This document shows, in pieces, positions 37,573 to 59,851 of a stretch of 64,000 nt of DNA. The notes under the pieces were generated by a model. The model saw only the letters and a list, made by a program, of their open reading frames with translations, ran no database searches and was not told the origin of the DNA. Position 1 is the stretch's first letter. Each line of letters opens with the position of its first letter. The position numbers were made by a program, and so were the translations under genes. The stretch is taken from NCBI GenBank assembly GCA_963726985.1, contig CAVSEF010000001.1, positions 9,855 through 73,854 of the forward strand, read 5' to 3'. The DNA is from an uncultured Solirubrobacterales bacterium. Its GTDB lineage: Bacteria; Actinomycetota; Thermoleophilia; Solirubrobacterales; Solirubrobacteraceae.

Positions 37573-37791
37573 CTACGTAGGTCTCGCCCGCGGCGAGGAT
37601 CTTGTCCTGTTGTGAATCAGGTCGTGGACCTTAACCTTGCCGGCTACAGCCGTCATACGGGACTGGTCGCATTCGTCGATGGTCAGCCAGTGGGTGCCCT
37701 CGACGGTCGTGCTGACGTAACGGCCGTTGGTGCCCCAGCTGCCGCCGTTGTCCGAGACCCAGAGGTGGCGGGAGAATTTCTTCGACATCAT
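37573..37791 (-). pseudogene. 5'-truncated, frameshifted remnant of the shared C-terminal module
   Basis: RHLWVSDNGGSWGTNGRYVSTTVEGTHWLTIDECDQS...GKVKVHDLIH aligns with 39642..~39900. After IHN the homologous reading (QDKILAAGETYVAAR) continues in another frame. Confidence 0.6.
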
Positions 37792-37792
37792 G

Positions 37793-38299
37793 TCAACCGA
37801 CGTATTCCAGGTCGACTTCTCTCACGCCTTCGGCCCTGGTGTAGAACAGTATCGACGTGACAACAGGCTTCCCTTCGAACGTTCCCTTGATCTGACAGTC
37901 CAGAGACTTCTTGGGAATCCACGGCCCAGGCCCGCACTTGAGCTTTGGATATGCCTTGCGAAACTTGGCGTAAGACGAGAAGGCTCCAATACCTTTGCTG
38001 GTCTTCTGTAGCTTGGAGTCCGTCCACATCGCATCCACTCGGAGTTCACGATCGAAACCGACTACGCCGTCGAAGCCAGCGGGATACTTCCAGGCGATGC
38101 GACCTTCAAAGTCGGGCGGTTCCTTGAACCCTGGCGGCCCAGTCACCGCTTCGACTTCCGCCTGCGTCATTCCCAGCTTTACGCCGCCAATGCTCTGCCC
38201 CACGATGATATTGGCGCTGGCGGTCGACGACAGCAGAACACCAATAGCCCCCATTGCCGTTAGCGCTACCCCGACGGCAACTACTAGACGTTGTCTCAT
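37793..38299 (-). CDS. exported hypothetical protein
   Basis: The ATG is preceded by GGGAGAAG. The signal reads MRQRLVVAVGVALTAMGAIGVLLSSTASA. 168 aa. Confidence 0.65.
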   Translation of the reverse strand: MRQRLVVAVGVALTAMGAIGVLLSSTASANIIVGQSIGGVKLGMTQAEVEAVTGPPGFKEPPDFEGRIAWKYPAGFDGVVGFDRELRVDAMWTDSKLQKTSKGIGAFSSYAKFRKAYPKLKCGPGPWIPKKSLDCQIKGTFEGKPVVTSILFYTRAEGVREVDLEYVG

Positions 38300-38509
38300 G
38301 CTTCTCCCTGTTTGTGTTTTGCCGCTAGCCGTGACCGTTCCTGCGTCCCGTAGCTGAGTGAGAAGGCTGATTGGGACGCCATGGCAGAGCACGCGAGGCC
38401 CATGTGACCGCTTGAGCGGGAGTAGTTAAGTTAGCGTCGACCGGCCCACAGGCGAAAAGAGAGGCCACGGCGAGCATAAGCGCAGCGTAAGCGACCCGAG
38501 CGCGAAGGC

Positions 38510-39538
38510 TCATGGTTGCCATACAGGCGAAGTTGGGACGTCGGATTGCACGTACTCGGGCCCGGTGCCGTTTTTGACGATCTCGTGGGCCTCTTGACCT
38601 TGCGCGTTCGTCACGAAGAGCCCCTGTAGGCAGGCCACGGCATAGAGCTGCCCGTGTGGAGAGTTCGCGGCCTCGAGCGGCCAGTAGCTTGAGCTGCCGC
38701 TGCGCAGGACGCGGTGCTTGCCCGTGGTCGGGCTGTAGAGACAGATGTCTGGGTGTTGGTCACCTGGCGCCGGGCACTCGTAGCTCACTTCTCCGCTGAT
38801 CGTGAAGTGGACGGGTTCGTCGTAGAACCTCGGAAGGAAGGTAGAGCGTGGTTCGGTGCCGCTCGTGGTCTCGACCGTCGTCAGCGTGTGGAAGCCGGTG
38901 CTCTCTTTGATCTGGTGCGTAAAGACCATGAGACTCCCGTTGCTGGAGTATTCGGCTGAGCCCGGTACGGGCAGCTTTTGGGAGACGCCGGTGCTGACGT
39001 TGACTTCCTCCAACGGCGTGAAGTCTTCTTCGAAGGGTTCCGGTGGTTCTTCCAAGAGCAGTTTCTGCGACCACATGTTCGGGTTCAGCGAGTACACGAT
39101 GTTGCCGCTCGAAGTGAAATTCGGGTTGTAGCCGAGGCCGAGGCGTCTACGGTCGCGGCCATTCGCATCGGCCACGTAAACCGCACGCGTGTTTTCCTCC
39201 ATATCCCCCTCGTCGCCATGGACGATGTTTGTCTCCATGTCGTACGTGAGGAGCTTGCCGTTAGGTGAGAAATGGGGGTGTCTCGGTACGTCCCAGACCA
39301 CGCAGCCGGCGCCACAGGTGGCGGTCCGCCACGGGATCAACTCGTGTAGATCAGTGCCGTTTGCTCGGATCTCGTAGATGCCCGTCTTGACCGAGTAGGC
39401 GATCTCGCCGGCCTGGAAGCGCGCGCTCATTGTGGCGCCCGACGTGAAGCCGGCGGCCGAGGCGCTCGCGGCAACCAGCAACAGCCACGCAACGGCCATC
39501 ACGGTCGTGCAGTAGATCCCAAAAATGGATCGCCTCAT
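38510..39538 (-). CDS. exported beta-propeller-like protein (TolB/PD40-like repeats)
   Basis: The signal reads MRRSIFGIYCTTVMAVAWLLLVAASASA. It has FSPNGKLLTY / YSSNGSLMVF-type repeat signatures. Confidence 0.68.
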   Translation of the reverse strand: MRRSIFGIYCTTVMAVAWLLLVAASASAAGFTSGATMSARFQAGEIAYSVKTGIYEIRANGTDLHELIPWRTATCGAGCVVWDVPRHPHFSPNGKLLTYDMETNIVHGDEGDMEENTRAVYVADANGRDRRRLGLGYNPNFTSSGNIVYSLNPNMWSQKLLLEEPPEPFEEDFTPLEEVNVSTGVSQKLPVPGSAEYSSNGSLMVFTHQIKESTGFHTLTTVETTSGTEPRSTFLPRFYDEPVHFTISGEVSYECPAPGDQHPDICLYSPTTGKHRVLRSGSSSYWPLEAANSPHGQLYAVACLQGLFVTNAQGQEAHEIVKNGTGPEYVQSDVPTSPVWQP

Positions 39539-39613
39539 GGATGCCTCTGTGCGGTCATTCGAATATCCTCTTCTAGTGGCTTGCGGAGCATTATCTCGCC
39601 TGGGAGAACGCTC

Positions 39614-39637
39614 GGCCACCCATCCAAGGTGTTAATC
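39614..39637 (-). promoter_or_regulatory. island motif copy I, short form (GATTAACACCTTGGATGGGTGGCC)
   Basis: It starts 4 nt after the stop of the module gene 39642..40542 and lies ~80 nt upstream of ATG 39538. Confidence 0.55.
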
Positions 39638-39641
39638 GCGC

Positions 39642-40542
39642 TCACCCCGACGGCTGACGGGTGGCTATGTACGTCTGGCCCGCGCTGATGACCTTGGTCT
39701 TGTCGTTGACCAGATCGTGCACCTTCACCCTGCCGGCCGCGACCTCTACCTCGGAGCGATTGCATTTATCGAGCGTCAGCCAGCGCGTGCCCTCGACCGT
39801 GGTGCTCACGTAACGGCCGTTGGTGCCCCAACTGCCGCCGCTCTCGGAAACCCAGAGGTGGCGTAACTTGGCGCCCGCGCGATGCCCGGCGCCTTTCGCG
39901 GGCGACTTGGCGTGAGGGTGGCCCAGCGGCAGGCTGCGCGGACATCCGGTGAGCGGCAGAGACAACGTTAAACGCGCCAGTGCATGAGCTCCGCTGGTCT
40001 GACGGAACGTGAAGATCCCCTCGTACACTTCCGCGCTTGCTGTCGGTCCGGCATGCGCGGTCGCCACGGTGATCAGCACGCGGCCGTCGGTGGCGTCGAC
40101 TTCGCTCCCGTTGGGGATGCTGGCCGAACCGGAGAGCGATACGAACGTGTTCGTGCCCTTGAGGCGGATTCTCACGGTCCCGGCGATCACCTTCGCGATC
40201 CCCCTGCCGGCCGAGGATCGGAGGTGGTGGGGGCTCTTCGACCGAGGGCGAGACAGGCTGCGCCGTCGCAGCCTGCACCGTGGGTGGCAGGGGTGGAGGT
40301 TGATATACGGCGACGCGATTCGTCGCGGGACGCACTGGACGGACAGCCTTGTTGGAAACCTTCGGCGCAAGGCGTGGTGGAGCGGACAGAACTACAACCA
40401 CCGGCGGCGGGGGAGGCGAGGATGCCTGTGTTTTCGTGAGCGACGCCAGCGCTACGCCGGACACCATCAGAACGACGGCGCACGCGATGATCGCCGCGTG
40501 AATTTGGCGCCTGCGCGCCGAGCGTCTATTTCTCGGTTTCAC
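39642..40542 (-). pseudogene. TM-anchored Pro-rich protein carrying the shared C-terminal module, split by a single frameshift at a G5 run
   Basis: The N-terminal frame (39766..40542) reads MKPRNRR...TM...PPPPPILGRQG. The module frame (39642..40370) reads IAKVIAGTVRIRLKGTNTFVSL... The frames meet at CAGGGGGAT (plus-strand C5 at 40200-40204). Removing one G gives LGRQGIAKVIAGTV, which aligns with the paralogs. Confidence 0.65.
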
Positions 40543-40689: not shown

Positions 40690-42027
40690 ATGGCAATCAG
40701 ACCGCGAGTCGGCCCAGTCCTGCAGTTACGTCAAGCGCACAACTGTCATCCATCGCGTGGACATTTGGCCGGTGTCGCCGCGACCGGTGTCGCTCTGGGC
40801 ATCACAATCGGCCTGACCGTTTTCTCCGGCGGCGGCTTCAGCGATGCGTCGCAGTCGACTTTTATCGCGCTCGCCGGCGCCACGCTGCTGCTGGCGGCGA
40901 GCTTCAACGGCGGCGCCACGATCGCGGCGATGCGATCTCCGTTGGCATTGACTCTCGCGGCTCTTGGCGCCCTCTGTATTGCGAGCGCGGCCTGGACGAT
41001 CGGGGACCCCGCGACATCTGTGCGCTGGGGGCTCACGATCGTGAGCTATGGCGCGGTGTTCGTCGCCGCCGCGACGTTCACACAAATGCTCGGCCCATGG
41101 CCGCTTGCTGCCGGAATCGCCGTCCTCGCGGCGATCGAGGCGATCCTGGGTGTGCGTGCGCTGGCCATGCATGCCTTGCCTGACGCCGAATCGATCGGCG
41201 GCGTCTGGCGGCCCGGGGGCACGTTTGAGTATCCCCCCGCGCTCGCGATCCTCGAGGTCGGCGCGATTCCGATCCTGAGTTATGCGATGGCACGCGAATC
41301 GAAGCTCGTTGCGGGTGCGTCCGCCGCGGCCACGGTGCTCGCCGGTGCGGTGCTTGGCCTCGCCGGAAGTCGACTGGCCGTTGGGCTCGCGGTGGTCTTC
41401 CTGGCGATCATGGCCCTGACCTCCCGAGCGAGCGGGATCTCGCGCATCACAGTGGCGGGTACGGCCGCACTGCTGATCGTGGGCGCACTGGCCGGCAGTG
41501 CCCTACTGAATGGACACCTCGCCCCGGGCGCGACCGCGGGGGACTACACGAGCCCCTCCGCCAGGGGCACATCACACGCTCGGAGCGCATCCGAGGTCCG
41601 ACGCACTCCTCCCAGCCGGCCGCGATCGGACCTGCTGCACGGCCGCGCGCATGAGTGGGACGCCGCACTGCAGACCTGGCTTCACCGGCCACTGCTCGGC
41701 GCCGGCGCCAGCTCGTACTACAAGGCATCGCTGCCATATCAGGGCTCCGGAGCCACGCTCTACGCGCACGACCTCCCGTTGGAACTGGCCGCCGAGCTCG
41801 GCGTGCTGGGATTGCTGCTGGGCGTGGTCTTATATATCGCGTGCGGGTGGACGATCGCGACGGCGAGCGACGGCACGGCGCTGATGCTCCTCGGCGTGAC
41901 GGTCGTGGCGTTCCTGGCTTCCAATCTCGTCGACTGGACGTGGCACCTGGCCGGTCTCGGAGCCGTGTGGGCTGCATGCGCTGGCGGCCTGGCGGGTTGC
42001 GGGCGTCGGACCGCGCGCGGGGCTTGA
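40690..42027 (+). CDS. O-antigen ligase / Wzy_C-like polytopic membrane protein
   Basis: About 10 TM segments, a large loop, and the motif YAHDLPLELAAELGVLGLLL typical of the O-antigen ligase family. Confidence 0.72.
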   Translation: MAIRPRVGPVLQLRQAHNCHPSRGHLAGVAATGVALGITIGLTVFSGGGFSDASQSTFIALAGATLLLAASFNGGATIAAMRSPLALTLAALGALCIASAAWTIGDPATSVRWGLTIVSYGAVFVAAATFTQMLGPWPLAAGIAVLAAIEAILGVRALAMHALPDAESIGGVWRPGGTFEYPPALAILEVGAIPILSYAMARESKLVAGASAAATVLAGAVLGLAGSRLAVGLAVVFLAIMALTSRASGISRITVAGTAALLIVGALAGSALLNGHLAPGATAGDYTSPSARGTSHARSASEVRRTPPSRPRSDLLHGRAHEWDAALQTWLHRPLLGAGASSYYKASLPYQGSGATLYAHDLPLELAAELGVLGLLLGVVLYIACGWTIATASDGTALMLLGVTVVAFLASNLVDWTWHLAGLGAVWAACAGGLAGCGRRTARGA

Positions 42028-44625: not shown

Positions 44626-44671
44626 GAGTAGCTCAGCTTATAGACGGCTCAGGAGTCCGAGCGTCTGCGGG

Positions 44672-45424
44672 TCAGGGAGAGAAGTAGACGGCCGCGCCGA
44701 TGCCACCGGTGCACTTGACCGTATTGGTGGACGTGACGCATGTCATTTCATACGTTTTGTGCGTCACGTCGCTATACGCTTCGACCGTGCTCGCGCCGCC
44801 GCTGCTGCGGTACGCCGATTGAACCGATTCCGCGAACACGCAGGTCGTGTCGGGGCCCACCGAAAGGCCGCCGCCGCAGGAGGTCTGGCTCGATCCGGCC
44901 ACTTCCGATGAGCCCCCTTGCTCGGCCGCCACAGCGGGTGTCGCGCTACCGCCACTGGAGCTCCCATGATGCGACGATTCTCCCGAGCCGCCGCTCGATT
45001 GCTGGGTGATCGTAAGGCTGGTCGAGCCCGGCGTCATGCCCGGAGCGCTGCCGATCACATCGATCGTCGTCTTTCCCGGATGGAGCGTTGCGGTACCGGT
45101 GAACACACCGTTGCCAACCGCCGCGGGCTCGCCTTGGATCTGGACGGTGGCGTTGGCCGGATCGACGGTGCCGCGAACCGTCACGTTGCTTGCCGCGATC
45201 ACACTGCCGCTGGTGGGAGCGACCACGACAACCGAAACAGCTCCGGAACCCACCGTGCTGGTTGTCGTCGAGGTCGTCGAACCACAGCCGGCAACCGCCA
45301 GTCCCAGCGTCGCGATAATCGCCACGGTCCAAGCTCTCGCGGCTACGGGAATCTTCCCTGCGTCCCCCATACGCGAAACCGTACCAGAGGTCCGAAGGTT
45401 GGGCTGTCCAGCATGATCGGTCAT
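44672..45424 (-). CDS. lipoprotein with an Ig-like domain and one Cys-rich C-terminal domain
   Basis: The lipobox reads LAVAGCGS. VTVRGTVDPANATVQIQGEPAAVGNGVFTGTATLHPGKTTIDVIG is followed by CGGGLSVGPDTTCVFAESV...CTGG..AVYF. There is an ATGA overlap with the upstream paralog. Confidence 0.7.
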   Translation of the reverse strand: MTDHAGQPNLRTSGTVSRMGDAGKIPVAARAWTVAIIATLGLAVAGCGSTTSTTTSTVGSGAVSVVVVAPTSGSVIAASNVTVRGTVDPANATVQIQGEPAAVGNGVFTGTATLHPGKTTIDVIGSAPGMTPGSTSLTITQQSSGGSGESSHHGSSSGGSATPAVAAEQGGSSEVAGSSQTSCGGGLSVGPDTTCVFAESVQSAYRSSGGASTVEAYSDVTHKTYEMTCVTSTNTVKCTGGIGAAVYFSP

Positions 45425-46482
45425 GGGAAGTAGACCGAAGCCCGGTTGCCTCCGGTACACACGACCGGGTCGCCGGCGGAGCAGGTCATCGAGTACGTCT
45501 TGTGCGTCACCGGGCTGTATGCCATGACCGTCCCCGGACCGGAGCTTTCATATGCCGAGCGGACCTCCTCGGCGAACGCGCATGTCGTGTCCGCTCCCAC
45601 GCTGAGCTCGTCGCCACAGCCCGTCTCACCCGAGTCGCCGCTGGCGTGTGCCACAGCCAGCGTCGCCTCTTCGCTGGAGTTCGGCTGCGCCGTCGCGTCC
45701 TCGGCGCCGGCGGAACCGCTGGGAAAGTAGACCGAGGCGTTGTCGCCTCCGGTGCAGACCACCGCATCGCCGGTCGAGCAGCTCATCGCGTAGGTCCGGT
45801 TCGTCACTGGGCTGTAGGCCATCACAGTTCCGGGACCGGCGTTGTCGTAGGCCGAGCGGACGTTTTCGGCGAATGCGCACGTCGTATCGGGTCCAACGGC
45901 CAGTTCGTTGCCACAGGCGGTCTCGGCCGAGCCGCTACCCGCGTAGGTGATCGCGGGGGTCGCGGCGGCTGAGGCCGGGTGGGTCGTCGTTGCCGTTCCG
46001 CCGCTGGATTGGCGGGCGACCATCACGGTGGTCGAGTCCGGGGTGGCCCCGGGGGCGCTGCCGATCACGTCGATCGTCGTCTTGCCGCCGTGCAGGGTCG
46101 CCGTGCCCGTGAAGACGCCGTTGCCGACCGCTGCCGGTTGGCCCTGAACCTGAACGGTCGCGTTGGCGGGGCTGACCGTGCCGCGCACGATCACCTGATC
46201 GGCCGCGATTACGCTACCGCCGGTCGGCGAGGTCAGGGCGACCGTGACCGCGCTTGCATTCTCTGCGCTCGTCGTGGTCGTGGTGGTGGTCGAGCCGCAG
46301 CCGCTGATCGCCAGCGCGAGCAACGCGACGGCCGCGCCCGCGCCCAGCCCGATCGCCTTGGAGGTTCGCCGGGCGCTCCGGCGCGGGCGTGTAGGGAGTC
46401 GAAGGCCGGGACCGGTCTGGTCGGTGGTCAACTGCTTTGAGTGGTTGTGATCCGGCTGGGTGTGCTGCGGCGTGGTGTCCAT
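45421..46482 (-). CDS. lipoprotein paralog with the same Ig-like domain and two copies of the Cys-rich domain
   Basis: The ATG at 46482 is preceded by GGGAGG. The lipobox reads LAISGCGS. The unit CG.EL.VG.DTTCAFAE.VRSAY...GPGTVMAYSPVT..TY.M.C..GD.VVCTGG..ASVYFP occurs twice. Confidence 0.7.
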   Translation of the reverse strand: MDTTPQHTQPDHNHSKQLTTDQTGPGLRLPTRPRRSARRTSKAIGLGAGAAVALLALAISGCGSTTTTTTTSAENASAVTVALTSPTGGSVIAADQVIVRGTVSPANATVQVQGQPAAVGNGVFTGTATLHGGKTTIDVIGSAPGATPDSTTVMVARQSSGGTATTTHPASAAATPAITYAGSGSAETACGNELAVGPDTTCAFAENVRSAYDNAGPGTVMAYSPVTNRTYAMSCSTGDAVVCTGGDNASVYFPSGSAGAEDATAQPNSSEEATLAVAHASGDSGETGCGDELSVGADTTCAFAEEVRSAYESSGPGTVMAYSPVTHKTYSMTCSAGDPVVCTGGNRASVYFP

Positions 46483-46537
46483 TTCGATGCCTCCCGGTTG
46501 GTTACACCAGCAGCATCCGTGCTCTTGGCCGGCCTGG

Positions 46538-46568
46538 ATACCCACCCAAGGTGTGGAGCTTTGTTACC
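46538..46568 (-). promoter_or_regulatory. island motif copy G (GGTAACAAAGCTCCACACCTTGGGTGGGTAT)
   Basis: It lies 56-86 nt upstream of ATG 46482 and points toward that gene. Confidence 0.65.
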
Positions 46569-46653: not shown

Positions 46654-46986
46654 ATGGGAACGGCCGGTTATGTACCGTGCATTGATCGAGATCATGGACG
46701 GCCGAGACCACCGTGCTGCGTGAGCAAACGGAAGTTCACGATCCACGTGCGCAAGCTGCCCGGAATCACGTGGGTCAGCGCGGTCATCAAGATCAATGGC
46801 AAGCGCGTGAAGTCCGTGGGACGCTCCCACATCACCGCGCTCGTGAACCTCGTGGGCTTGCCCAAAGGCACGTTCGTCCTTTCGATCACCGCCAAGGCGA
46901 GCAACGGACAATCGGTGACCGGGACACGGACCTACCACACGTGCGTTCAGAAAAGCAAAAGCCACTACCCGACTCCGAAGCTCTAA
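46654..46986 (+). CDS. small stand-alone copy of a ~85-aa module (CVSKRKFTIHVRKLPGITWVSAVIKINGKRV...)
   Basis: The same module ends the decayed gene 49030..50435. Here it is intact but lacks any N-terminal domain or obvious signal peptide. The start is uncertain. Confidence 0.4.
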   Translation: MGTAGYVPCIDRDHGRPRPPCCVSKRKFTIHVRKLPGITWVSAVIKINGKRVKSVGRSHITALVNLVGLPKGTFVLSITAKASNGQSVTGTRTYHTCVQKSKSHYPTPKL

Positions 46987-47052
46987 AGTGGGCAGCCGGC
47001 AAGGGCTTCCGATCAACAAGAACGAAGCCGTCCGGATAGGGTAGTCATTCGC

Positions 47053-47898
47053 ATGCGGCCCGAGAGTCCGAGAGCGTTGAGACGCGCGGTACTGGTACTG
47101 GCTGTTGCGGCCGCGGTCGGTGGACTGGGCGTGGCGCAGGCCCATGCCACTACCACGGCGCCTGCCGTCGCGGTGAGCGCCGGCTGGGGCCACTCCTGCG
47201 CAATCCTGTCGGGCGGCACCGTCGAATGCTGGGGCGAAAACGAGCAGGGCGAGCTCGGCAACGGAACGATCAAGGGCAGCTCTAGGCCGGTCGCAGTGAA
47301 GGGCGTGAGCAGTGCGATAGCGGTCAGCGCCGGCAATGAAGACACCTGCGCGCTGATCTCGGGTGGAGCCGTTGAGTGCTGGGGCCTGAACGTCAAGGGC
47401 GAGCTCGGCAACGGGACGACCAAGAACAGCTCCACGCCGGTCGCGGTGAAGGGCGTGAGCAGCGCGATCTCTGTGAGTACCGGCATCTCGAGCACATGCG
47501 CCCTCCTGTCGGGTGGAACCGTTGAGTGCTGGGGCGACAACGAGAACGGTGAACTCGGCGACGGGACGACCAAGAACAGCTCTACGCCGGTCGAGGTGCA
47601 GGGTGTGAGCGACGCGATCGCGATTGCCAACGGGGAAACCCACTGCGCGATCATTGCCGGCGGGACCGTCGAGTGCTGGGGCTATAACGCGCAGGGCGAG
47701 TTAGGGAACGGCACGACCGAGAGCACCACCACACCGGTCGCCGTGAGCGCCTTGAGCAACGCTACCGCAATCAGCGCGGGTTACGCCTCATGTGCGGTAG
47801 TTGGGATGGGCTCGGTCGAATGCTGGGGTCATAACGAAGAAGGAGCGGGGACGGAGCCAGCGCGAGTAATTCCACGCCGGTCTCCGTGGCCGGGGTGA
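47053..47898 (+). CDS. exported RCC1-repeat protein, N-terminal part (5 repeats), ending out of frame
   Basis: A signal peptide is followed by GG(T/A)VECWG.N..GELGNGT...SS.PV.V.G units. After ECWGHNEEG the frame reads [17 protein letters not shown], whereas another frame continues [25 protein letters not shown]. Confidence 0.75.
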
Positions 47899-48968: not shown

Positions 48969-49029
48969 TCGCGCTTCGAGCGATGGCAGATGCTTGCTGA
49001 GTAATCCGACTCCAAGAGGGGACACCGCA

Positions 49030-50435: not shown

Positions 50436-50488
50436 CGATGCACGGCCTAACGACCGGGATCAATGGGGCGATCCTCAGAGGGGCCAAC

Positions 50489-51334
50489 ATGCGAAAGGGA
50501 CTGTGCTCTATTCCGCTCGTTGTCATTGTGGCGCTGGCGCTCATGGGTACCAACGCTACTGGGAGCACACTGCACCTGAGCGAGTTAGCACCCGCCGCGC
50601 GGGGAGTGGGCGCGGCCGCTACGGCGCAAAGCGCGAGCTCGTGCGCAAACGAGCGAGTTGTGGCAGGGAGGGGCGGCGAAGTTTTCTACGCGTTCACCCT
50701 GCACGGCATCGCATGCGCGAAGGCGCACGCCCTCATCACGGCCTACAGCCACCGGGTCAGCACGGGGCGGGGGTGCGAGGGTCGCGGCACCGCGTGCGGC
50801 TACGAGGTGAGCGGCTCATGGTGCTCGCTGCCCGGCTACGCCGGCGCCCCAGTGGACGCGGGGTGCTGCGAGAACGGCGGCCACCCCCTCGGGAGCTGTT
50901 CGCGCCATGGCGGGAGCTTCACGGTTCGCGCAACCTCCCCTCCGCCCGGCTGGAGCGCGCAGCTGCACCTGACTCAGTTCGAGACGCCCGACGGGAGCAT
51001 CTCCTGCTACTCAACCGGCCTCGGGCTGAAGGGCTACACGTCGTGCTCGGTGTCGAGCAAGAACGAGTTCGCGGTACCGGCGGCATGGATGGAAGCCCCG
51101 CGTGTGCGGGTGTGCACGCACCGCGAAGAACTCGTGCAGCCCGAAGGCGAAGGCAGCGCATGTCCGGTGAGCGATCTGGACCGCAGGGTGATCCTCGCCG
51201 ATGGCCAGGAAAACGAGCTCGGCGGCATCCGTTGTGTGGTCGCGCCCGAAGGCGTGACGTGCACATTCGCTGCGGGTGCTGAAGCCGGCAAGGGTTTCCG
51301 CATCAACATCTCTGAAGTCGTGCAGCTGGGCTGA
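50489..51334 (+). CDS. exported Cys-rich protein (hypothetical)
   Basis: The ATG is preceded by AGAGGGG. The signal reads MRKGLCSIPLVVIVALALMG. 281 aa with ~20 Cys, including the motif FTLHGIACAKAHALI that is shared with 55012..55407. Confidence 0.65.
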   Translation: MRKGLCSIPLVVIVALALMGTNATGSTLHLSELAPAARGVGAAATAQSASSCANERVVAGRGGEVFYAFTLHGIACAKAHALITAYSHRVSTGRGCEGRGTACGYEVSGSWCSLPGYAGAPVDAGCCENGGHPLGSCSRHGGSFTVRATSPPPGWSAQLHLTQFETPDGSISCYSTGLGLKGYTSCSVSSKNEFAVPAAWMEAPRVRVCTHREELVQPEGEGSACPVSDLDRRVILADGQENELGGIRCVVAPEGVTCTFAAGAEAGKGFRINISEVVQLG

Positions 51335-51348
51335 GGGCGCCCCGCGAT

Positions 51349-53189
51349 ATGCGACGACATCCACGACGCGTGTCCCTGCTGGTGGCTGCCGCCACGTTCG
51401 CGGCGGCCGGGGCGATGGCCGTGCCGGCGCACTCGGCGGAAGTCAGCTGGACGATCGTGCCCACACCCGTCCCGGTCGGGCCCACCGAGAGTCTGTTGCG
51501 AAGCGTGTCGTGCGTATCCGCGCAAGCCTGCATGGCCGTTGGCTTCACCGACGATGGGCATCCAGCGGTCAACGGCGAAGCGGTGGCCATCGGCTCGCTG
51601 GCCGAGAGCTGGAATGGCTCTTCTTGGACCCAGGTTCCCGCCCCCCGCGTCGGCGGGCGCGAACCCGGAGCTGTATTCCGTCTCGTGTGCGTCCGCGGTG
51701 TTCTGCGTCGCGGTCGGGCACACCGAGGGGACTCCGCCGCGAACGCAACCGAATTCGACGACCACGCGGAACCAGCCTCGAGGGCGATCGTGGAGACGTG
51801 GAACGGAACAGCATGGACGGTGCAGCCGAATCCCGCCGCAGCTCTTCCGGCGAGCACGCTTGGCGGCGTCTCGTGCCGCTCGGACTCATTCTGCATCGCG
51901 GTAGGGGCCAGCCGTGTACAGGCACGTGAACGTGCGCTCGCGGAGGTGTGGAATGGGACGAGCTGGAAGCTGCAGAGCCCGCCGCGAATCGCGGGTCAAG
52001 GCGCCCACCTGCAGGCCGTCTCGTGCGTCCTGGGTTCGTGCCAGGCCGTGGGTGTCTACCTCCCACGACCGGAAGATCCCCTTCTCCTCGCGGAGCGCTG
52101 GGACGGGAGTCGCTGGAGCGTGGAGCCTCCGAGCGCAACCTCGCGCCTGAGCCAAATGGCGTCTCGTGCGTGTCGCGCTCCTTTTGCCTCGCGGTCGGTA
52201 GCGCCGGGTCGCGCGCCGGCCCCATCGTGGCGCCCCCGTTCGCCGAGCGCTGGAGCGGCTCGCGTGGACGCCGCTCACGCCGGGACTGCCGAAGCACGGG
52301 GAACTCGACGGCGTCTCCTGCGTGACGAGCGCATTCTGCCTCGCGGTGGAGCAGCTCGATCAGCAGCCCGTTCCCGGCGACGGCAGGACCCCTGCTCGAG
52401 AGCTGGAACGGATCCCGCTGGTCGCGCAGCACCACCCCAGCCGTCCCGGTGCCCAGCCTCTCCCCGGAGCCGGAGTTCCCTGACCCGCTGGACCCTGCGC
52501 TGTTGGGCATCTCCTGTGTCGCGCAGATTGGCTGCACGGCCGTCGGCGCGCAGGCCGCCGGCTCCAACCTTGTGCCGTTGGCGCAGAGCGAGGCGGGTGC
52601 CCCGAGCGCTCCGCCCCCGGAACCCGCTCTAGCACCCGCATCGGTGCTCGGACGAAGCGCCGACGTCAAGACCCTGTCGGGAACCGTGTTGGAGCGACTC
52701 CCCGGGAACCACGCGTTCGTGCCACTCTCCTCATCGACGCAGATCCCGTTCGGTACGGTCGTGGACGCGACCCACGGCAGCGTGTCGGTGACGACTGCGG
52801 GCCCGCACGGCACCACCCAGACGATCACTCTCTCAGAAGGCGAGTTCGTACTGACGCAAGGCCACAGCGGCATGGTGGTGGCAACGCTCGCGGGCGGTGA
52901 CTTCTCGGTGTGCCCGACCGCACAGAAGCGAGCTCACCTCGCCCGCTCCGCGTCAACACACACGACGGGCAAACACGTGGTGCGCAAACTGTGGGCCGAA
53001 GGCCACGGCAACTTCACGACCGGCAACTACGCCTCAGCGTCCGTGCGCGGGACCAAGTGGCTGACCGAGGACCTCTGCGAAGGCACGCTGATCCACGTGG
53101 CGACCGACCGCGTCGCGGTCATAGATCGCGTCAACCACCATCACGTCATCGTGAAGGCCGGACACAGCTACCTCGCGAAAGCGCCATGA
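51349..53189 (+). pseudogene. exported protein of SVSC.S...C.AVG / WNG..W repeats plus the shared C-terminal module, broken by at least 4 frameshifts
   Basis: The repeats are readable in turn in the frames of ORFs 51349, 51539, 51349, 51948 and 52449. The last 190 aa (52449-frame) carry the module ...SVLGRSADVKTLSGTVLERLPG...[11 protein letters not shown]. Confidence 0.6.
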
Positions 53190-53199
53190 CAGCGGCCGG

Positions 53200-53230
53200 A
53201 GTAACAGAGCCCTACGCGTTGGTTGGCTGG
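53200..53230 (+). promoter_or_regulatory. island motif copy B (GAGTAACAGAGCCCTACGCGTTGGTTGGCTG)
   Basis: It starts 11 nt after the module stop (53189) and lies ~100 nt upstream of ATG 53328. Confidence 0.6.
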
Positions 53231-53327
53231 CTATGAAGATGCGGACCACGAATACTGGGTGAGCAGACCAGCTTTCAAAGGAGACTCCGATGCGCATGCG
53301 ACTCACAATCATCACCGTCCTCGCCTC

Positions 53328-54864
53328 ATGAGACTGCTGGATCGTTTCTCGCGAGCAGGTGCAGTCCGACTGACTGGGATGCTGGTCGCGGCGGTAGCCA
53401 TAGCGGCATGCTGCGTCGGCGTGTCCTCGGCGGCGCCACAGAAGGCATCCGCACGATCCCCGTCGGCATCGCCCCTTGGCGTGTCTTCGGATGGAACCCA
53501 CGTCTGGGTCGCGAACACAGCGAAAATACGGTCAGTGAGATCGAAGCGTCGAGCGGCGAAGTCATCCGCACGATCCACGTCGGCAGCCGCCCCGAAGGCG
53601 TGTCTTCGGATGGAACCCACGTCTGGGTCACGAACTCCGGCGAAGATACGGTCAGTGAGATCGAAGCGTCGAGCGGCAAAGTCATCCGCACGATCCCCGT
53701 CGGCACCGCCCCAAAGGCGTGTCTTCGGATGGAACCCACGTCTGGGTCGCGAACGCCATCGAAAGGTACGGTCACTGAGATCGAAGCGTCGAGCGGCACC
53801 GTCATCCGCACGATCGCAGTCGGCAGCCACCCCCAAGGCGTGTCCTCGGATGGAACCCACGTCTGGGTCACGAACGCCGGAAATACGGTCAGTGAGATCG
53901 AAGCGTCGAGCGGCACCGTCATCCGCACGATCCCCGTCGGCAGCACCCCCATAGCGTGTCTTCGGATGGAACCCACGTCTGGGTCGCGAAGCGACGAAAA
54001 TACGGTCAGTGAGATCGAAGCGTCGAGCGGCACCGTCATCCGCACGATCCCCGTCGGCAGCCCCCCAAGGCGTGTCCTCGGATGGAACCCACGTCTGGGT
54101 CACGAACTCGAAGATACGGTCAGTGAGATCGAAGCGTCGAGCGGCACCGTCATCAACACGATCCCCGTCGGCAGCGCCCCCAGGCGTGTCCTCGGATGGA
54201 ACCCACGTCTGGGTCACGAACCGACATTCGTTGCCGAAGCCTTTTGACGGTACCGTCAGTGAGATTGCGACCAGCTAAACGGCAGCCAAGCTTCCGCTCC
54301 CGAAGCTGGCTGGTGACGGGCAACCTGACGCCGGTTTCCGGCAGCGGTGCTGGTGAAGTCTGCCTGGCATCCTCGACCTTCGTTTCTCTGGCGGCGGTCC
54401 GTCAGATCCCGTTCGGGACGGTGATTGACGTCACGGATGGGGGTCGTGAGCGTGACGACCGCGCTTCCCGGTGGGGGCACCCAGACGGGCGAATTCTTCA
54501 AAGGTGAGTTTGTGTTGACCCAGGGCCGCAATGGACGGGTGGTGGCGACGCTGGCAGGCGGGAACTTCTCGACTGTCCGACTGCCCGTGAGCGAGTCACA
54601 AGGCGAGCGCGCAGTTCAGGCACGCGCAGCCGGCGTCGGGGAGCCAGGCGGTGCGCAAACTGTGGGCCAACGCGCACGGCAAATTCTCCACTAAGGGCAA
54701 CTATGCCGCCGGGGGCGGTGCAGGGCACCGAATGGCTGACGGAGGATCTATGCGAAGGAACTTTAATCAAGGTCACCCGCGACAAGGTCGCGGTGACGAA
54801 CCTCGTCAACCACCGTCACATCACGATCACGGCGGGCCACCGCTATCTGGCCAAGGTGCCGTGA
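53328..54864 (+). pseudogene. exported YVTN/NHL-like beta-propeller repeat protein plus a decayed shared C-terminal module; many frame changes and one in-frame stop
   Basis: The signal reads MRLLDRFSRAGAVRLTGMLVAAVAIAACC. Seven units of (TVSEIEASSG.VIRTIPVG..P.GVSSDGTHVWV.N) follow, then a module remnant (VSGSGAGEVCLASSTFVSLAAVRQIPFGTVIDVTDG ... [42 protein letters not shown]) spread over 3 frames. Confidence 0.6.
53478..54278 (+). repeat. tandem array of 7 coding repeats (periods 120, 120, 117, 117, 114 nt, then 136)
   Basis: The anchor GTCAGTGAGATCGAAGCGTCGAGCGGC recurs at 53531, 53651, 53771, 53888, 54005, 54119 and 54255. The core GGCGTGTC(T/C)TCGGATGGAACCCACGTCTGGGTC recurs at 53478, 53597, 53716, 53837, ~53953, 54069 and 54183. 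Confidence 0.9.
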
Positions 54865-54919
54865 GCACGAGCCGCGGACCGAGCAGGTGGGGGCACCGGA
54901 AGACCCGCTCGTTGTGTCG

Positions 54920-54950
54920 GGTAACAGACGCCCACACCTTGGAGGGCTGG
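54920..54950 (+). promoter_or_regulatory. island motif copy C (GGTAACAGACGCCCACACCTTGGAGGGCTGG)
   Basis: It lies 56 nt after the decayed module stop (54864) and 62-92 nt upstream of ATG 55012. Confidence 0.65.
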
Positions 54951-55011
54951 CTACAGCGACGCCGACGACGGATACTGCTGAGCAAGACAACTCCAAATGG
55001 GGAGTATTCCA

Positions 55012-55407
55012 ATGCGCAGACGACTGATCACTATCGCCATTCTCATCACGGCCGTAGCCGCGATCTCCACGACGCCCGCGGCGGCCGAACGATCCTGCGG
55101 CACTGAGCGTGTCCGGCCCGGCAGGACCGGCCCCGCTACGGCGGGTTCTACGAGCGATTCGGGCCTCCCTTACAGGATCAGCGTGTCGCGCGGATCGGTC
55201 ACCTGCGCCAAGGCGCGCAGCCTGATAAAGGACACGGGCGAAGGTAAGGGCACGTGGCACGAGGCTCCCGCCCTCTCGGGGATTTACACGAGCTTTCCAG
55301 GCGGCTGGTCCTGCTCCCCCGTCGCAAATGGAGGGTATGGCTGCGTGCAGGGTCGGCGCGTCGGCGCCTTCCAGCACGCGGACACGATCTCCGGCGCACA
55401 GCTCTGA
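55012..55407 (+). CDS. small exported Cys-containing protein (hypothetical)
   Basis: The ATG is preceded by GGGGAG. The signal reads MRRRLITIAILITAVAAISTTPAAA. It has the motifs RISVSRGSVTCAKARSLI and PGGWSCSP. Confidence 0.65.
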   Translation: MRRRLITIAILITAVAAISTTPAAAERSCGTERVRPGRTGPATAGSTSDSGLPYRISVSRGSVTCAKARSLIKDTGEGKGTWHEAPALSGIYTSFPGGWSCSPVANGGYGCVQGRRVGAFQHADTISGAQL

Positions 55408-55946
55408 CGATCAGCCGGCCGGCGGGCGGCGACTCCGCTACGTCGCCGCGTCGCTCGGCGGGCGGCGGCGCCGGCGTCGAACCGCCGCGACCTCTTGAAA
55501 TCCCGATCGAGGTAGAGGGCGGTTTGATTTCCGGGCGGTTCGATTTCCTTCGGTGGCAAGGGCTTGGGTGTCATGGACCTCTCTACCGCCAAGACGGCCA
55601 GCGACGAAATCGTCTGCGCGATCATCAGGATCCCGACCGCGCCCGACGGCCATGAAGCGCGAGCCGAACCTTACGCGCGTTTTCCGCGCGCAGTGCCTCA
55701 TAACCATAGCCGACAGCGGCAAGCCAGCCCAGCGTGTCGGATTCAGCGGGCACGCGAGCACCAAGCGAGTGTCGTCCTCCGTTGCGACAGCATCCATGCC
55801 AGTTGGGAGGACCGCCCGTAGCGGCGAAGCGGTCGTCACGGGTGCCGGCACCTGACCCCGCTTGGCCAATGCCGCCGCACGCAACGCCGTGATCGAGAGC
55901 AGAAGATCGTTGGGGACGCGCAGCCGTCCAGTGCGCCTGTCGCTCG

Positions 55947-55977
55947 GGTAACGAAGACCTACACCTTGGTTGGGTAG
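55947..55977 (+). promoter_or_regulatory. island motif copy D (GGTAACGAAGACCTACACCTTGGTTGGGTAG)
   Basis: It lies 70-100 nt upstream of a 25-codon ORF (56047..56124; SD region CCAAGGGGGA). That ORF overlaps the GTG of 56121..56873 by GTGA. Confidence 0.6.
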
Positions 55978-56120
55978 CCCTGCCTGCGTTGGTTGCGCCG
56001 GATCACGGGATTCTCCTCAGATCCGACTACCAAGGGGGACAGAGAGATGCCCAAGCCAACCGATAGCTACGAACAGTTGTCGCTCGACGACTTCACCTCA
56101 ACGATGGACACAAAGGGAGC

Positions 56121-56873
56121 GTGAATATTGTGGCTCAGCTTATCGTGATCGTGATTGTTGCACCGATTCTGTGGCAGTTGCCGAGGGTCTGCTGGCCGGT
56201 GCATGTGGATTCCTCGGGCATGCGTTTTACTGGGCTCTATTCGCGCTACTCAATTCAGACCGCGACCGGATACGCCAGTGGTATTCGCACTTGGACTGGT
56301 GAGGCGCTGAGCACTGGTTCGGTCAGCGCCCAAACGACCGGCCCGGTGATTGGCAGTAGCGTCGTCGCCAGTACGACTTTCAGCGACAGTCGTAGGACCT
56401 TTGTTGTTCGGCACACCGGTTTCTTTCTTGAGGATCGCGCTGGAGCTATGCACGAGGTGGACGCGGCCAACGTTGGGCCGTCGATGGCCGATGGTCACCT
56501 TGTGTCGGTCGCCTGGCTCGTACACAACGGGAAACGCGGTAACGCATTCTTGGTCGCGAACCACACGACCGGCAGCGTGTACATCGAGAAGACGCGGGCC
56601 GGGGGAGATAGGAATGCGCGACGCAGGCCTGGTCAAAATGGTGTTCCCGATGCCCTTGCCTATCCAGGTGCTCCTTCTCCTTCTGATCGTCACCATACCG
56701 TTGATGATCGTGATTGGGGTGGCGGCCATGTTGCAGCTGCGGTGGTTTGGGACGCGTGGTTCTCGGCCCCTGGTGGCCTTGTTGGGCCGCAATGCGGCCG
56801 AGATGCCGTCGCGCACTCGCGCCGCTGGCGGGAATGTGGCGATGGCGCCGGTGCATCGTGCGGGCGCGGTTGA
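56121..56873 (+). CDS. membrane-anchored hypothetical protein (3' end doubtful)
   Basis: It has an N-terminal TM (IVAQLIVIVIVAPILW) and a plausible ~165-aa domain up to ...GSVYIEKTRAG. Beyond ~56610 the frame looks non-coding and overlaps the SHOCT gene, so this is either a frameshift or an earlier true stop. Confidence 0.4.
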   Translation: MNIVAQLIVIVIVAPILWQLPRVCWPVHVDSSGMRFTGLYSRYSIQTATGYASGIRTWTGEALSTGSVSAQTTGPVIGSSVVASTTFSDSRRTFVVRHTGFFLEDRAGAMHEVDAANVGPSMADGHLVSVAWLVHNGKRGNAFLVANHTTGSVYIEKTRAGGDRNARRRPGQNGVPDALAYPGAPSPSDRHHTVDDRDWGGGHVAAAVVWDAWFSAPGGLVGPQCGRDAVAHSRRWRECGDGAGASCGRG

Positions 56874-56994
56874 CTTCGCCTCTCAGATGAAGGAGATCAC
56901 CGTGCTCCACGAGTCGGGGTCCCTTACGCCTGACGAGTTCCAGGCCGCTAAGGCGAAGCTGCTTGACACACGGGTCGCGGGGGGACGGCGGTGA
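56614..56994 (+). CDS. membrane protein with a C-terminal SHOCT domain
   Basis: The ATG is preceded by GGGGAG. It has a TM (LPIQVLLLLLIVTIPLMIVIGVAAML) and ends EITVLHESGSLTPDEFQAAKAKLL (SHOCT signature). Confidence 0.6.
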   Translation: MRDAGLVKMVFPMPLPIQVLLLLLIVTIPLMIVIGVAAMLQLRWFGTRGSRPLVALLGRNAAEMPSRTRAAGGNVAMAPVHRAGAVDFASQMKEITVLHESGSLTPDEFQAAKAKLLDTRVAGGRR

Positions 56995-57079
56995 CCGCGG
57001 TGGCGATATTCGTCTTTGGGCGCTAGCTCGCTACGCCGACTGGCACCCTCATCGTGGTGCCTGACGCGCTTGGGAAGGT

Positions 57080-57502
57080 TCAGCGGGCCATGCCCGTCAA
57101 ATCAGCGACATGGCAGGTGCAGGTCTTGCCGGACCGCGACGGGGATGCCGAGCCGTCCACACGGGAGCATGAGCAGAACCCGCCGTGACGTAGTCCCAGC
57201 GCCCGCGAGCGCGGCGCAAGATGACGACACCGTTGAACCCCCAGCGGCCGCACGAGCGATAGTGGAGGCCGTTGAAGCCGACGGTCGGCCCAGTTGCCGC
57301 CGTCCTTGGTCGTCACCTGGGCAAACAGGCAGCGCTCCGGGATGCCGGGAGGCAACTGCGGGGCCGCAGCTCGGTCGATCGCATTCCGAGTACTGCCGGT
57401 CGCGACTCGACTAGCGACAGCGACCGCTGGCACGACGAGCCCGAGGACGATGATGATGGTGATGATCCGCTTCACGATCTGCTCCCGTGTCGATGGTTCC
57501 AT
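57080..57502 (-). CDS. TM-anchored hypothetical protein (3' half doubtful)
   Basis: MEPSTREQIVKRIITIIIVLGLVVPAVAVASRV... The second half has a non-coding-like composition and may be frameshifted. Confidence 0.35.
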   Translation of the reverse strand: MEPSTREQIVKRIITIIIVLGLVVPAVAVASRVATGSTRNAIDRAAAPQLPPGIPERCLFAQVTTKDGGNWADRRLQRPPLSLVRPLGVQRCRHLAPRSRALGLRHGGFCSCSRVDGSASPSRSGKTCTCHVADLTGMAR

Positions 57503-57504
57503 GC

Positions 57505-57533
57505 GTCTCACCCCAAGGCGCTATTGCTCACCG
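57505..57533 (-). promoter_or_regulatory. island motif copy J, weak (CGGTGAGCAATAGCGCCTTGGGGTGAGAC)
   Basis: Only CGCCTTGGGGTGAG matches the core. It abuts the start of 57080..57502. Confidence 0.35.
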
Positions 57534-57630
57534 AGCGGGTCACCGGCACCCTACCGATGACGTGCATCGCGTGCCGGACCCGACGGCGCTCGGGCATCGG
57601 CGCGCGGGCAGGCGGCGGGCGGCGCCCAGT

Positions 57631-58005
57631 TCACGTCTTCCTCGCGTTGCCAACGGCGTCGTAAGCATCGATTGACGCGCCCGGGCGGCTGCAGTCCGCC
57701 TCGAGGCCGTGGTCTCCCTTGGACTCGACGGCGCTCAGGAAAGCGCACTGCCAGCCACCGGGTTGGCGTATCCCACAGATCCGTCCTGATCCACAAGCCC
57801 CCGACGCCCTCGTCGCGTCGAAACGCGTCGGTACGCGCGACGAGCTTGAGCGCAGGACACCTTGCCGCGCAGCACGAGTCGCCATGTGGTTGCCTTACCA
57901 GACGCCGTGCCTATCTGGACCAGGCACGGGGAGAGCAATCGACCCGTCGCGCCTCGCCTGCGCCCCAGTCGTCGTCAGCACAACCACGACAGTGAATGCC
58001 GCCAT
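57631..58005 (-). pseudogene. frameshifted paralog of the small exported protein 55012..55407
   Basis: The signal MAAFTVVVVLTTTGAQA, then TTWRLVLRGKVSCAQARRAY, then PGGWQCAF..., each lie in a different minus-strand frame (ORFs 57895.., 57735.. and 57631..). Confidence 0.4.
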
Positions 58006-58944
58006 CGCAAAGCTGAAAGTCGCCCGACCGTGTCGCGGGACTCGCCGCCAATGACCTCGCTGTCCCACCAACTCGTCCCCGCCCATCCGGTCCACATTCT
58101 CCGCTGGCCTGTATTCCATAGTGTAGGCGTTCACGCGGTTGTGAGCCGGACCGGGATCGGCGTCATCGCATCGCTCGCCATGGCGGGGTACGCTCGCTCG
58201 CGACCGTAACGGGTTGCGCGCCTGGCCTGCAATCCATGACTCAAACGCAAAATGCACAAGGGGGATGTCATGAAGCGACTCATCCTTCGCAGCGGCGTTG
58301 GCTCTTCGGGCTGACGCTGCCCGCCATGGCCCAAGCGAGCGATTCCTCAGCCGATCTACTTCTGGGGGAGCGTCGCTGCGCCTCCCGGAAGCGATCCGAG
58401 GGCCCGGTCTGCCCACCCAGCCAGAGGTTATTCGTCCCTCAGGTGATCGCTGTCTATAACGAGGACGGCGCATGGTCCATTGAACGATCTGCATTGGACT
58501 GGTTGGGGCTCAAGCGTTGCCCACGCCAACGGGAATCAGCAGCGCGAGCAACGGCATCCCGAACCATGGCTCAGGGGAAGCGGATAAAGAAGCCAGCCCA
58601 GGTCACTCTGTCGAACCCCGGGCGGTTCTTCAGGGCCACGAGGTGTACCGCTGCTTCATGGTCAAGGTCGCTCCCCCGACCCAACGGGTTGAGCACCTAT
58701 GCCTCGAAGGTCATCATGGCCTCTGGGTCCTGAATTAGCGCTGAGCACCGTTCTCTGGCATGCCGGATTGGCGTTTACGGGCACGGCTGCTCGCCGACGA
58801 CGGTCGAGCGCCGGCGGCGAGGGTGCCCCACTTGCGCAATCGAACAGAAGCGAGCGCATCGCCCGTTTGATCGCGGGCTGCTGAGTTGGACGGTGGCTGT
58901 TGCGTAAAGGGGTGCCGTCCGGCGGGTTGAAGAGGATGCTGGGT

Positions 58945-59252
58945 ATGCCCCAGAACTTCATAGCTTGTGACCGTGAGCAGGATCTGTTGTTGCCGCCGAG
59001 TTTGAGGGAGTGGTTGCCGGAGGATCATCTTGGCGTGGTTCGTGCTGGCGAGCGACCGAGGAGATGGATCTGTCGGCGTTCTATGGGGCCTACCGTGGCG
59101 ATGGCCACGGTCGTGCGGCGCACGAGCCGGGGATGATGCTCGCGCTGTTGCTTTACGCCTACTGCAAGGGGCAGCGCTCCTCGCGGTTGATCGAGCGCGA
59201 GTGCGTGGAGGACGTGGCCTACCGGGTGATCGCGGCGAATCAGCGCCCGGAG
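58945..59252 (+). mobile_element. IS1182-family transposase N-terminal remnant (frameshifted and truncated)
   Basis: MPQNFIACDREQDLLLPPSLREWLPEDHL / AWFVL / DLSAFYGAYRGDGHGRAAHEPGMMLALLLYAYCKGQRSSRLIERECVEDVAYRVIAANQRPE matches the DUF772/InsH-type N-terminus, spread over three frames. No DDE domain follows. Confidence 0.7.
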
Positions 59253-59769
59253 AGGACCCGACCTCAGGTCGCGTGCAGGCGAGGGCGTACCGGTGTACAT
59301 GGGGATCATCGCGGGGATGGATGAATGGCATCAGAGGAGAGTGATCGTAGTCAGGCCGCCCGCACCACCGCCTCGGACGAACCTCGCGGAATACGTCGAA
59401 CCCCCGCTACAGCGATGGGCCTGTCGCTCCAAACCCACCTTCGGCGGCCAGGCCATGCAGGTCACCTGCCAGCGCGGGCACGCGACGGTCACCGCGCAAC
59501 TGGGTGAATGAGCCTCGTAGGTTCGCGGTGACACCGGCCGTCCGTCGCGATCGCGCAATGGTTCGCTTGGTCGCAGGAGCTTCTCGATAGCGCGGCCAAG
59601 CCGGCGGAGACGCGTCGACTTCCGCTTCGCGTGATCGCGCGCGACCGTGCACCCTCGGTCACGCTGCAAGGAGGAGGGAAGACGCTGCGACCCCTACGCC
59701 GTCGAGCCTCTCGCCTTCCCGCGGAACAACCTGCAAGCTAGACGGCAACCGACCTGCGCGGCGTCTCAA

Positions 59770-59851
59770 GCCCCGTGGCTGTTGCCACCGGGTTAACCAC
59801 CACCACGTCACAGTCAGGGCGGGTCACAGCTACCTCGCGAAAGCGCCATGA
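59770..59851 (+). pseudogene. orphan 3' end (~25 codons) of the shared C-terminal module
   Basis: GGGTTAACCACCACCACGTCACAGTCAGGGCGGGTCACAGCTACCTCGCGAAAGCGCCATGA is nearly identical to 48718..48779. Confidence 0.7.

Follow-up and report, generated by a model that had tools for sequence, protein, structure and literature searches.

Genes and motif of the module island

We analyzed a stretch of 64,000 nucleotides (nt), referred to here as the window, from contig CAVSEF010000001.1 of an uncultured Solirubrobacterales bacterium. The subject of this report is a conserved module of ~175 residues, ending ...GHSYLAKAP, that forms the C-terminus of proteins encoded in an island of the window, beside a gene for a CHASE2 Ser/Thr protein kinase (60274-62385, + strand; Pfam CHASE2 E 4.6e-42, Pkinase E 3.1e-32). 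Translation and a BLAST comparison of the window with itself recovered all six module sites claimed in the original prediction (E 5e-169 to 6e-29), the starts of which had been placed out of codon register, and the four N-terminal architectures ascribed to them. Two contigs served for close comparison: L001, a near-identical sister-strain contig of 13.4 kb (ENA assembly ERZ25039497), and L002, a more distant relative from an ENA metagenome assembly of neighbouring accession (ERZ25039501).

Two module copies have intact frames and are of the same type, designated A. Copy 1 (48246-48779, +) ends the open reading frame (ORF) 47886-48779 and, with it, a secreted RCC1-repeat gene (47053-48779, +) that has a signal peptide and Pfam matches to RCC1 and WD40_RLD. 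One frameshift near 47850-47890, also found in the sister strain L001, splits this gene into ORFs 47053-47898 and 47886-48779. Copy 2 (52659-53189, +) ends ORF 52449-53189, to which the sequence P0007 is identical; the whole gene (51349-53189, +) carries a signal peptide, Cys-rich SVSC/WNG repeats and several frameshifts, and its orthologues are intact in L003 and L004 (611-637 aa) and in L002 (619 aa). Between copies 1 and 2, nt identity is 88% over 463 nt (48327-48789 versus 52740-53199, E 5e-169) and amino acid (aa) identity is 84%, and the nt similarity ends 10 nt past the stop codon. Their synonymous divergence (dS) of 0.55, with a dN/dS of 0.20 indicative of purifying selection, marks even the best pair of copies as old paralogs.

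The remaining copies are more degraded or more divergent. A third copy (54316-54864, +), 70% identical to copy 1 at the nt level (E 3e-57), has at least three frameshifts and shares several indels with its counterpart in L001, that is, across two independent assemblies. It ends a YVTN-like beta-propeller gene (53290-54864, +), in which seven tandem units of 114-120 nt each (53404-54221) precede the frameshifted module. In alternate units, indels of ±1 nt beside C-runs switch the reading from GVSSDGTHVWV to ACLRMEPTSGS and back; these are either compensated frameshifts or homopolymer sequencing errors. Some indels of the gene as a whole are common to L001 and as such are unlikely to be random read errors. 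The fourth copy (39642-40202, -), with 37% aa identity to copy 1, represents a divergent subtype, type C, and ends a gene that consists of a transmembrane (TM) segment and a Pro-rich anchor ahead of the module (39642-40542, -), with a frameshift at the linker/module junction near 40220. All four module genes of the window are frameshifted upstream of or inside the module. The last two sites are orphan 3' ends: a type-C fragment of ~70 codons (37573-37791, -; 78% nt identity to 39657-39863), which lies directly past the stop of ORF 37793-38392, and the last ~25 codons of a type-A module (59775-59851, +; 92% identity to 48702-48790), which is also present in the sister strain.

The anchor gene adjoins a Wzy_C (O-antigen ligase-like) gene on the opposite strand (40690-42027, +). 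This divergent pairing recurs in L002 and L006, so that the membrane-tethered form of the module may have a second conserved context here.

A second repeated element of the island is the motif GTAACAnnnnCCTACACCTTGG, found in seven copies at no more than three mismatches where chance would give 0. On the + strand it occurs at 48939-48960 and again at 53201, 54921, 55948, 59863 and 60001, and on the - strand at 46546, with half motifs at 39624-39632 and 37512-37520 (-). The motif had been described as following four module stops. We found it 11 nt past the stops at 53189 and 59851, in both cases behind the identical spacer CAGCGGCCGG, as predicted, and 56 nt past 54864; past 39642 there is a half motif only. 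After the stop of copy 1 at 48779 the distance is ~159 nt, in agreement with the longer insert noted there. The further proposal that a module 3' end and the following motif had been duplicated as one unit holds for a single pair: continuous module, spacer and motif DNA is shared by 53127-53223 and 59789-59885 (87%), and elsewhere the similarity is not continuous.

The layout of these regions is motif, ~22 nt, GACGGAT(A/G)CTGCTGAGCAATCC, AAGGGGGA and ATG. The element has an invariant GGTAAC and ACACCTTGG, and a -10-like box GAT(A/G)CT, ~40 nt downstream of the motif, is followed by TTGCTGAGCAA, a ribosome-binding site (RBS) and the ATG. The motif is confined to the window and its closest relatives (L001-L005). 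An RNA-leader reading was rejected (RNAalifold -1.75 kcal/mol, with essentially no covariation), and a reading as an extracytoplasmic function (ECF) or sigma-70 promoter yielded no convincing -35/-10 spacing. We read the motif as a putative promoter or regulator site.

A FecR-like module family and its pairing with CHASE2 genes

A search with a single module sequence returned 145 relatives, and a profile search of 1.84 billion representatives returned 6,215 clusters at E<=1e-3, 3,049 of them at E<=1e-30; grouped at 50% identity, the family comprises more than 6,000 clusters. The module match nearly always reaches the last residue of proteins that range from 200 to 2,100 aa, and a Pro-rich linker precedes it. 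Among 55 representatives the N-terminal domains included TIG (30), FG-GAP (12) and lactonase propellers (9), along with Ig, lectin and fn3 domains. In translations inspected by eye, the window genes and at least 10 orthologues showed N-terminal signal peptides or TM segments. Two cysteines are conserved in the module, C141 being invariant and C85 present in at least 90% of sequences, a pair whose conservation would be compatible with an extracellular disulfide. No sequence model in Pfam, NCBIfam or the PDB matched the module, the faint signals being limited to NCBIfam Lsa33 (E 0.004-0.7) and Cfp29 (E 0.3). The species loci that we retrieved (80 best-scoring ones, kept out of 334 stretches confirmed by tblastn) bear Solirubrobacterales or Solirubrobacteraceae metagenome-assembled genome titles in 77 of 80 cases, many from the MFD series. 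The module is a FecR-like tail domain without annotation that ends thousands of secreted Solirubrobacterales proteins. As thousands of architectures occur across the family, its promiscuity is a family trait and not the outcome of a local grafting onto unrelated N-termini, as had been supposed from the window alone.

The likeness to FecR had been a tentative guess, and structure prediction gave it support. An AlphaFold2 model built from a 72-sequence alignment is all-beta (pLDDT 88.2, pTM 0.84), and the top four Foldseek matches in the PDB, namely PupR 6ovk_R (E 9.7e-3, probability 1.00, query TM-score 0.44), 4m0n and two chains of 4m0h, are all C-terminal domains of FecR-family anti-sigma proteins. 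These are the sole consistent fold matches, every other match having a probability of at most 0.2. The FecR/PupR C-terminal domain (PF04773; 6OVK, 4M0N) is likewise all-beta and extracytoplasmic. In the best-aligned hhalign stretch, a weak echo at the sequence level, the 'VRGT.W' strand of the module falls on 'LGTEF.V' of FecR (within 'ALGTEFTV'), so that a GT-x-(F/W)-x-T/V strand motif is common to the two, and the window gene composed of a TM segment, a linker and the module resembles FecR in topology. The differences are equally plain: the module proteins are without a significant PF04773 match, an anti-sigma N-terminal domain, an STN/TonB transducer partner and an ECF sigma factor, and the module sits behind large propeller or Ig ectodomains in a monoderm host.

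CHASE2 domains are widespread as extracellular sensors. Using the window kinase as the query against the fetched loci, we found a CHASE2-domain homologue no more than 6 kb from the module in 66 of the 80 species loci, which, as top-scoring matches, may over-represent one orthologous group. The module and CHASE2 genes lie on opposite strands in 64 loci, 58 of which have the two starts within ±620 nt of each other (median 45 nt). The module-bearing ORFs of these divergent pairs encode 550-1,400 aa; in most loci that gave no CHASE2 match, the module ORF exceeds 2,100 aa and runs off the fetched flank. As its output domain, the partner has a class III cyclase in 63 of the 66 loci (Pfam CHASE2 plus Guanylate_cyc) and a kinase in three (L003, L004 and L018). 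Kinase outputs are confined to these three and the window, in the clade to which the window belongs, and point to a swap of the output domain on a conserved sensor. An independent contig again showed a divergent pair of a module gene and a CHASE2-cyclase gene. The other window genes that lie beside module copies were conserved neighbours in just 0-5 of 82 loci.

For Burkholderiales and Pseudomonas, a clustering of FecR-domain proteins with CHASE2 histidine kinases has been reported, with a peptidoglycan-binding LysM domain on the Burkholderia FecR-domain partner; the same paper states, in 2016, that the factors recognised by CHASE2 were unknown (PMC5192318). FecR-domain proteins are also paired with CHASE2 adenylate cyclases in Campylobacterota (PMC9239204), and the cAMP/Clr regulon of S. 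meliloti, which CHASE2 cyclases drive, includes a periplasmic protein with a FecR domain (PMC5498481). Our literature search gave nothing specific on CHASE2 together with FecR-like proteins, or on Solirubrobacterales surface proteins. The pairs described here resemble the published ones (LysM-FecR/COG4254; Campylobacterota) in the conserved pairing of a secreted FecR-like protein with CHASE2, whatever the output. They differ in that they occur in Actinomycetota, belong to a divergent family missed by Pfam, have large variable ectodomains in place of LysM, with the FecR-like part C-terminal to them, are divergent genes and not operons, and extend to a kinase output and to a multi-copy island specific to one lineage. 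In view of both the fold resemblance and the common CHASE2 context, the module is best classed as a 'FecR-like partner of CHASE2 receptors'.

Strain breakpoints inside module copies

L001 is collinear with positions 46965-58675 of the window. In 46965-48461, 54799-57116 and 57487-58675 the two are essentially identical, differing by one substitution, one 2-nt cluster and a few 1-bp indels. Between the first two of these segments lies a block (48462-54798) with ~1,200 differences between the strains, flanked by sequence of ~100% identity. Both breakpoints of the block fall inside modules, the left one in copy 1 (~48462-48605) and the right one in the third copy (~54798), and the dS between positional orthologues of the two strains is 0.54 for copy 2, inside the block, versus 0.04 for copy 1. 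In L002, the Wzy_C-linked anchor gene is orthologous to the window (83% nt identity) up to position 40223, the module start, and then continues with a type A instead of a type C module. The orphan end at 59775-59851 is itself chimeric: its coding part is like copy 1, and its spacer and motif are like the junction after copy 2. In all, three orphan 3' ends precede motif-bearing promoters.

A 370-nt patch at 57117-57486, which bears 26 substitutions relative to L001 in otherwise identical sequence and contains ORFs without a Pfam match, looks like a second small tract of recombination or conversion. A look-up of a third strain with the window ORF 55012-55407 gave the L001 contig only.

The original prediction had proposed that conserved sequences flanking variable ectodomains form cassettes that homologous recombination could exchange. 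Our results partly support this idea, in the sense of recombination anchored between strains and not of programmed switching. As the most conserved DNA of these genes, positioned beside the promoter motif of the next gene, the module would serve as a homology anchor, and replacement of an ectodomain block between strains would break inside modules, as the comparison of the window with L001 and the module-type swap in L002 suggest. Several observations argue against an active cassette system. The cassette order, which had been expected to vary, is unchanged in the sister strain; every island gene comes with a separate motif, RBS and ATG; and the peaks of identity between copies 1 and 2 coincide with the peaks seen between species. 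For this last reason, and given their dS, recent gene conversion between the two copies was considered and rejected. No recombinase or invertase is present in the island, where the sole trace of a mobile element is a truncated DUF772 (IS4/IS5-type) transposase (59010-59324, +; Pfam E 3.8e-8), also found on the sister contig L086. The orphan module end lies ~450 nt downstream of this remnant, which could alone explain it. Compared with pilE/pilS cassettes and the orphan modules of contact-dependent inhibition (CDI) and Rhs systems, the island has in common that conserved segments flank variable coding DNA, that orphan 3' stubs occur, and that the breakpoints of strain replacement lie in conserved segments. 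Unlike those systems, it has no silent promoterless cassettes and no recombinase, its repeats are 70-88% identical (dS ~0.5), and its gene order is the same in sister strains. Of the 80 species loci, just 6 have two or more module copies within 12.5 kb; as multi-copy loci are this rare, the island is best described as a lineage-specific expansion, shared by the window, L001, L002 and L005.

Several other features of the window were noted. Two adjacent paralogous genes on the - strand (44672-45460 and 45421-46545) have Glucodextranase-domain-B-like matches and internal DNA repeats of 70-77% identity (45425-45638 versus 45722-45935; 44988-45315 versus 45998-46328), and the island motif at 46546 precedes the second of them. 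GC content is 0.62-0.63 at 32000-40000 compared with 0.67-0.72 in the first 32 kb. Two tandem arrays, at 31945-32070 (3.3 x 38 nt, 96% matches) and 32496-32664 (~3.8 x 30 nt, GCAAAAAAGTAGGCCGTCCCGCCGG...), coincide exactly with the drop in GC from ~0.69 to ~0.62 and so may mark the left edge of the island, the left part of which may, judging from composition, have been horizontally acquired. ORF 33915-34493 encodes a Pol-beta-type nucleotidyltransferase, and a 113-nt imperfect palindrome at 29674-29786 matches its own reverse complement at 78%. Gene calling based on GC at third codon positions gave no discrimination inside the island, and Rfam and tRNA scans found the island empty, the sole match being a tRNA-Gln at 17404.

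A co-sensor reading and its alternatives

We propose that the module is the FecR-like part of a secreted co-sensor that docks on CHASE2, and that in this lineage it has been expanded and has come to anchor recombination; we give this reading a probability of roughly 0.55. Most species have one module gene, head-to-head with a CHASE2 sensor gene whose output is mostly a class III cyclase. The conserved module probably docks on or beside the extracellular CHASE2 domain, and the N-terminal part, a variable set of propeller, Ig, lectin or repeat domains, may bind an external ligand or surface; each protein would thereby serve the CHASE2 receptor as an antenna or co-sensor. In the lineage of the window the family has expanded into an island of ~22 kb beside a CHASE2 kinase gene.

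A number of observations weigh against this proposal. The fold match is a moderate one (TM-scores 0.44/0.37, E ~1e-2), and scores below 0.5 suggest a resemblance to the FecR/PupR fold, short of proof. At the sequence level the guess of a FecR domain found no backing: PF04773 matched neither the window copies at E<=0.01 nor any of 72 family members at E<=1, a PDB profile search with the module returned nothing, hhalign against a single E. coli FecR sequence gave no match, and hhalign against an enterobacterial FecR alignment gave a non-significant probability of 2.4%. The enterobacterial profile is shallow, since the homologue search from E. coli FecR returned close relatives only. Thus, the FecR guess is upheld by fold and CHASE2 context and not by sequence. 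With respect to the pairing, in addition to the selective nature of the 80 loci, a divergent member of 48% identity (P0114) has no adjoining CHASE2 gene, and three module genes of the window lie 7-20 kb away from the kinase. Wall-anchored proteins of Gram-positive bacteria, too, classically have a conserved C-terminal domain behind a Pro-rich linker. Finally, the window and its closest relatives are long-read metagenome assemblies, those of the relatives belonging to the MFD series. Assembler switching between strains at repeats could mimic the mosaic, and the 1-bp indels in the flanks and the indels at C-runs mean that some frameshifts may be errors.

In an alternative view the module is an envelope anchoring or retention domain that holds adhesin-like ectodomains by binding a wall, surface-layer or membrane component, while the CHASE2 neighbour would only regulate or sense that process, with no direct docking. 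Such a role would suit a module at the extreme C-terminus of thousands of secreted proteins with TIG, FG-GAP, lectin and Ig N-termini, the Pro-rich linker ahead of it, its possible disulfide, the Wzy_C gene beside the anchor gene in the window, L002 and L006, and the LysM domain of the Burkholderia FecR-domain partner (PMC5192318). It would also suit a second, unrelated C-terminal module of ~88 aa, mod2, that takes the same place on similar proteins. Mod2 (pattern ...VSKRKFTIHVRKLPGITWVSA...TYHTCV.KSKSHY.TPKL*, no Pfam match) occurs in two copies of 82.5% nt identity, one intact but orphan-like (46700-46986, +) and one frameshifted behind Ig-like sequence (50135-50435, +), and in L002 it ends an intact RCC1 protein of 586 aa. 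In its invariance on many unrelated secreted ectodomains, behind a low-complexity linker, the FecR-like module is comparable to the C-terminal domains of type IX secretion (T9SS) substrates and to SLH and LPXTG anchors. Yet it is unlike SLH, LysM, LPXTG, CWB2 and GW in Pfam and NCBIfam searches, it shows no sequence or fold match to the known anchors, and it has neither a sorting motif nor a hydrophobic tail. No cognate sortase or secretion genes were seen near it, the conserved neighbour being a sensor, and the tight divergent CHASE2 pairing in ~58 species exceeds what a generic anchor would lead one to expect. We therefore regard a purely anchoring role as unlikely. Much further from the evidence is the idea that module genes encode true FecR-type anti-sigma regulators of ECF sigma factors, with the island motif as an ECF promoter. 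The fold resemblance to PupR and FecR C-terminal domains and the invariant GTAAC of the motif, which we take to recall ECF -35 elements, speak for it, but the domain architecture already contradicts it: E. coli FecR homologues carry the cytoplasmic anti-sigma domain PF16220 (DUF4880), whereas the module proteins lack it and have signal peptides and propeller or TIG domains instead. Sigma-70 r2/r4 domains are absent from the ~40 island ORFs scanned, as are TonB-dependent transducer or receptor domains, in a host that is a monoderm actinobacterium, and no -10-like element is spaced 16-17 nt from GTAAC. We consider this explanation very improbable.

A different kind of objection holds that old paralogues and pseudogenes of a promiscuous domain family make up the island, in an ordinary gene cluster, that the mosaic and many frameshifts are artefacts of long-read metagenome assembly at a locus rich in repeats and heterogeneous between strains, and that the 3' stubs are leftovers of random deletions, or deletions mediated by insertion sequences, that were unable to enter the promoter of the next gene. 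The divergence and purifying selection of the best pair, the agreement of paralogue and between-species identity peaks, the constant gene order and the truncated transposase near the orphan end are all in line with old paralogues; the single-base indels in otherwise identical flanks, the C-run indels of the YVTN units and the shortness of L001, expected where assemblers break at strain variation, are in line with artefacts. Read errors, however, do not produce ~1,200 differences, mostly substitutions, between two modules beside 2.3 kb with zero differences. The indels of the third copy are common to two independent assemblies and L002, from a neighbouring but separate accession, has intact orthologues, which makes real pseudogenisation likely, at least for the third copy. 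In addition, the module-type swap in the L002 anchor gene breaks exactly at the module start, and an ordinary cluster of paralogues would leave the CHASE2 pairing unaddressed. On balance this account, too, seems improbable to us.

The co-sensor reading can be extended to a more speculative and, in our view, doubtful form, in which the module is a universal plug through which interchangeable antennae such as propellers, lectins and Ig arrays feed different signals into one CHASE2 receptor, their repertoire being multiplied here beside a CHASE2 kinase and varied between strains by recombination that the plug-coding and promoter sequences anchor. If true, sensory input here would be modular and subject to recombination, and there would be an indication of what CHASE2 answers to. 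FecR-domain neighbours of CHASE2 were known in Proteobacteria and Campylobacterota; our analysis adds a large FecR-like family (>6,000 clusters) in soil Actinomycetota with the same pairing, with both cyclase and kinase outputs and with large, variable ectodomains that would bind ligands. The module-bounded strain mosaic is a candidate case of conserved domain DNA anchoring recombination in a surface-protein island. The module family merits a Pfam/InterPro domain model of its own, and ~60 natural pairs of module and CHASE2 genes are usable for coevolution analysis and complex modelling, which makes the hypothesis of a co-sensor docking on CHASE2 testable.

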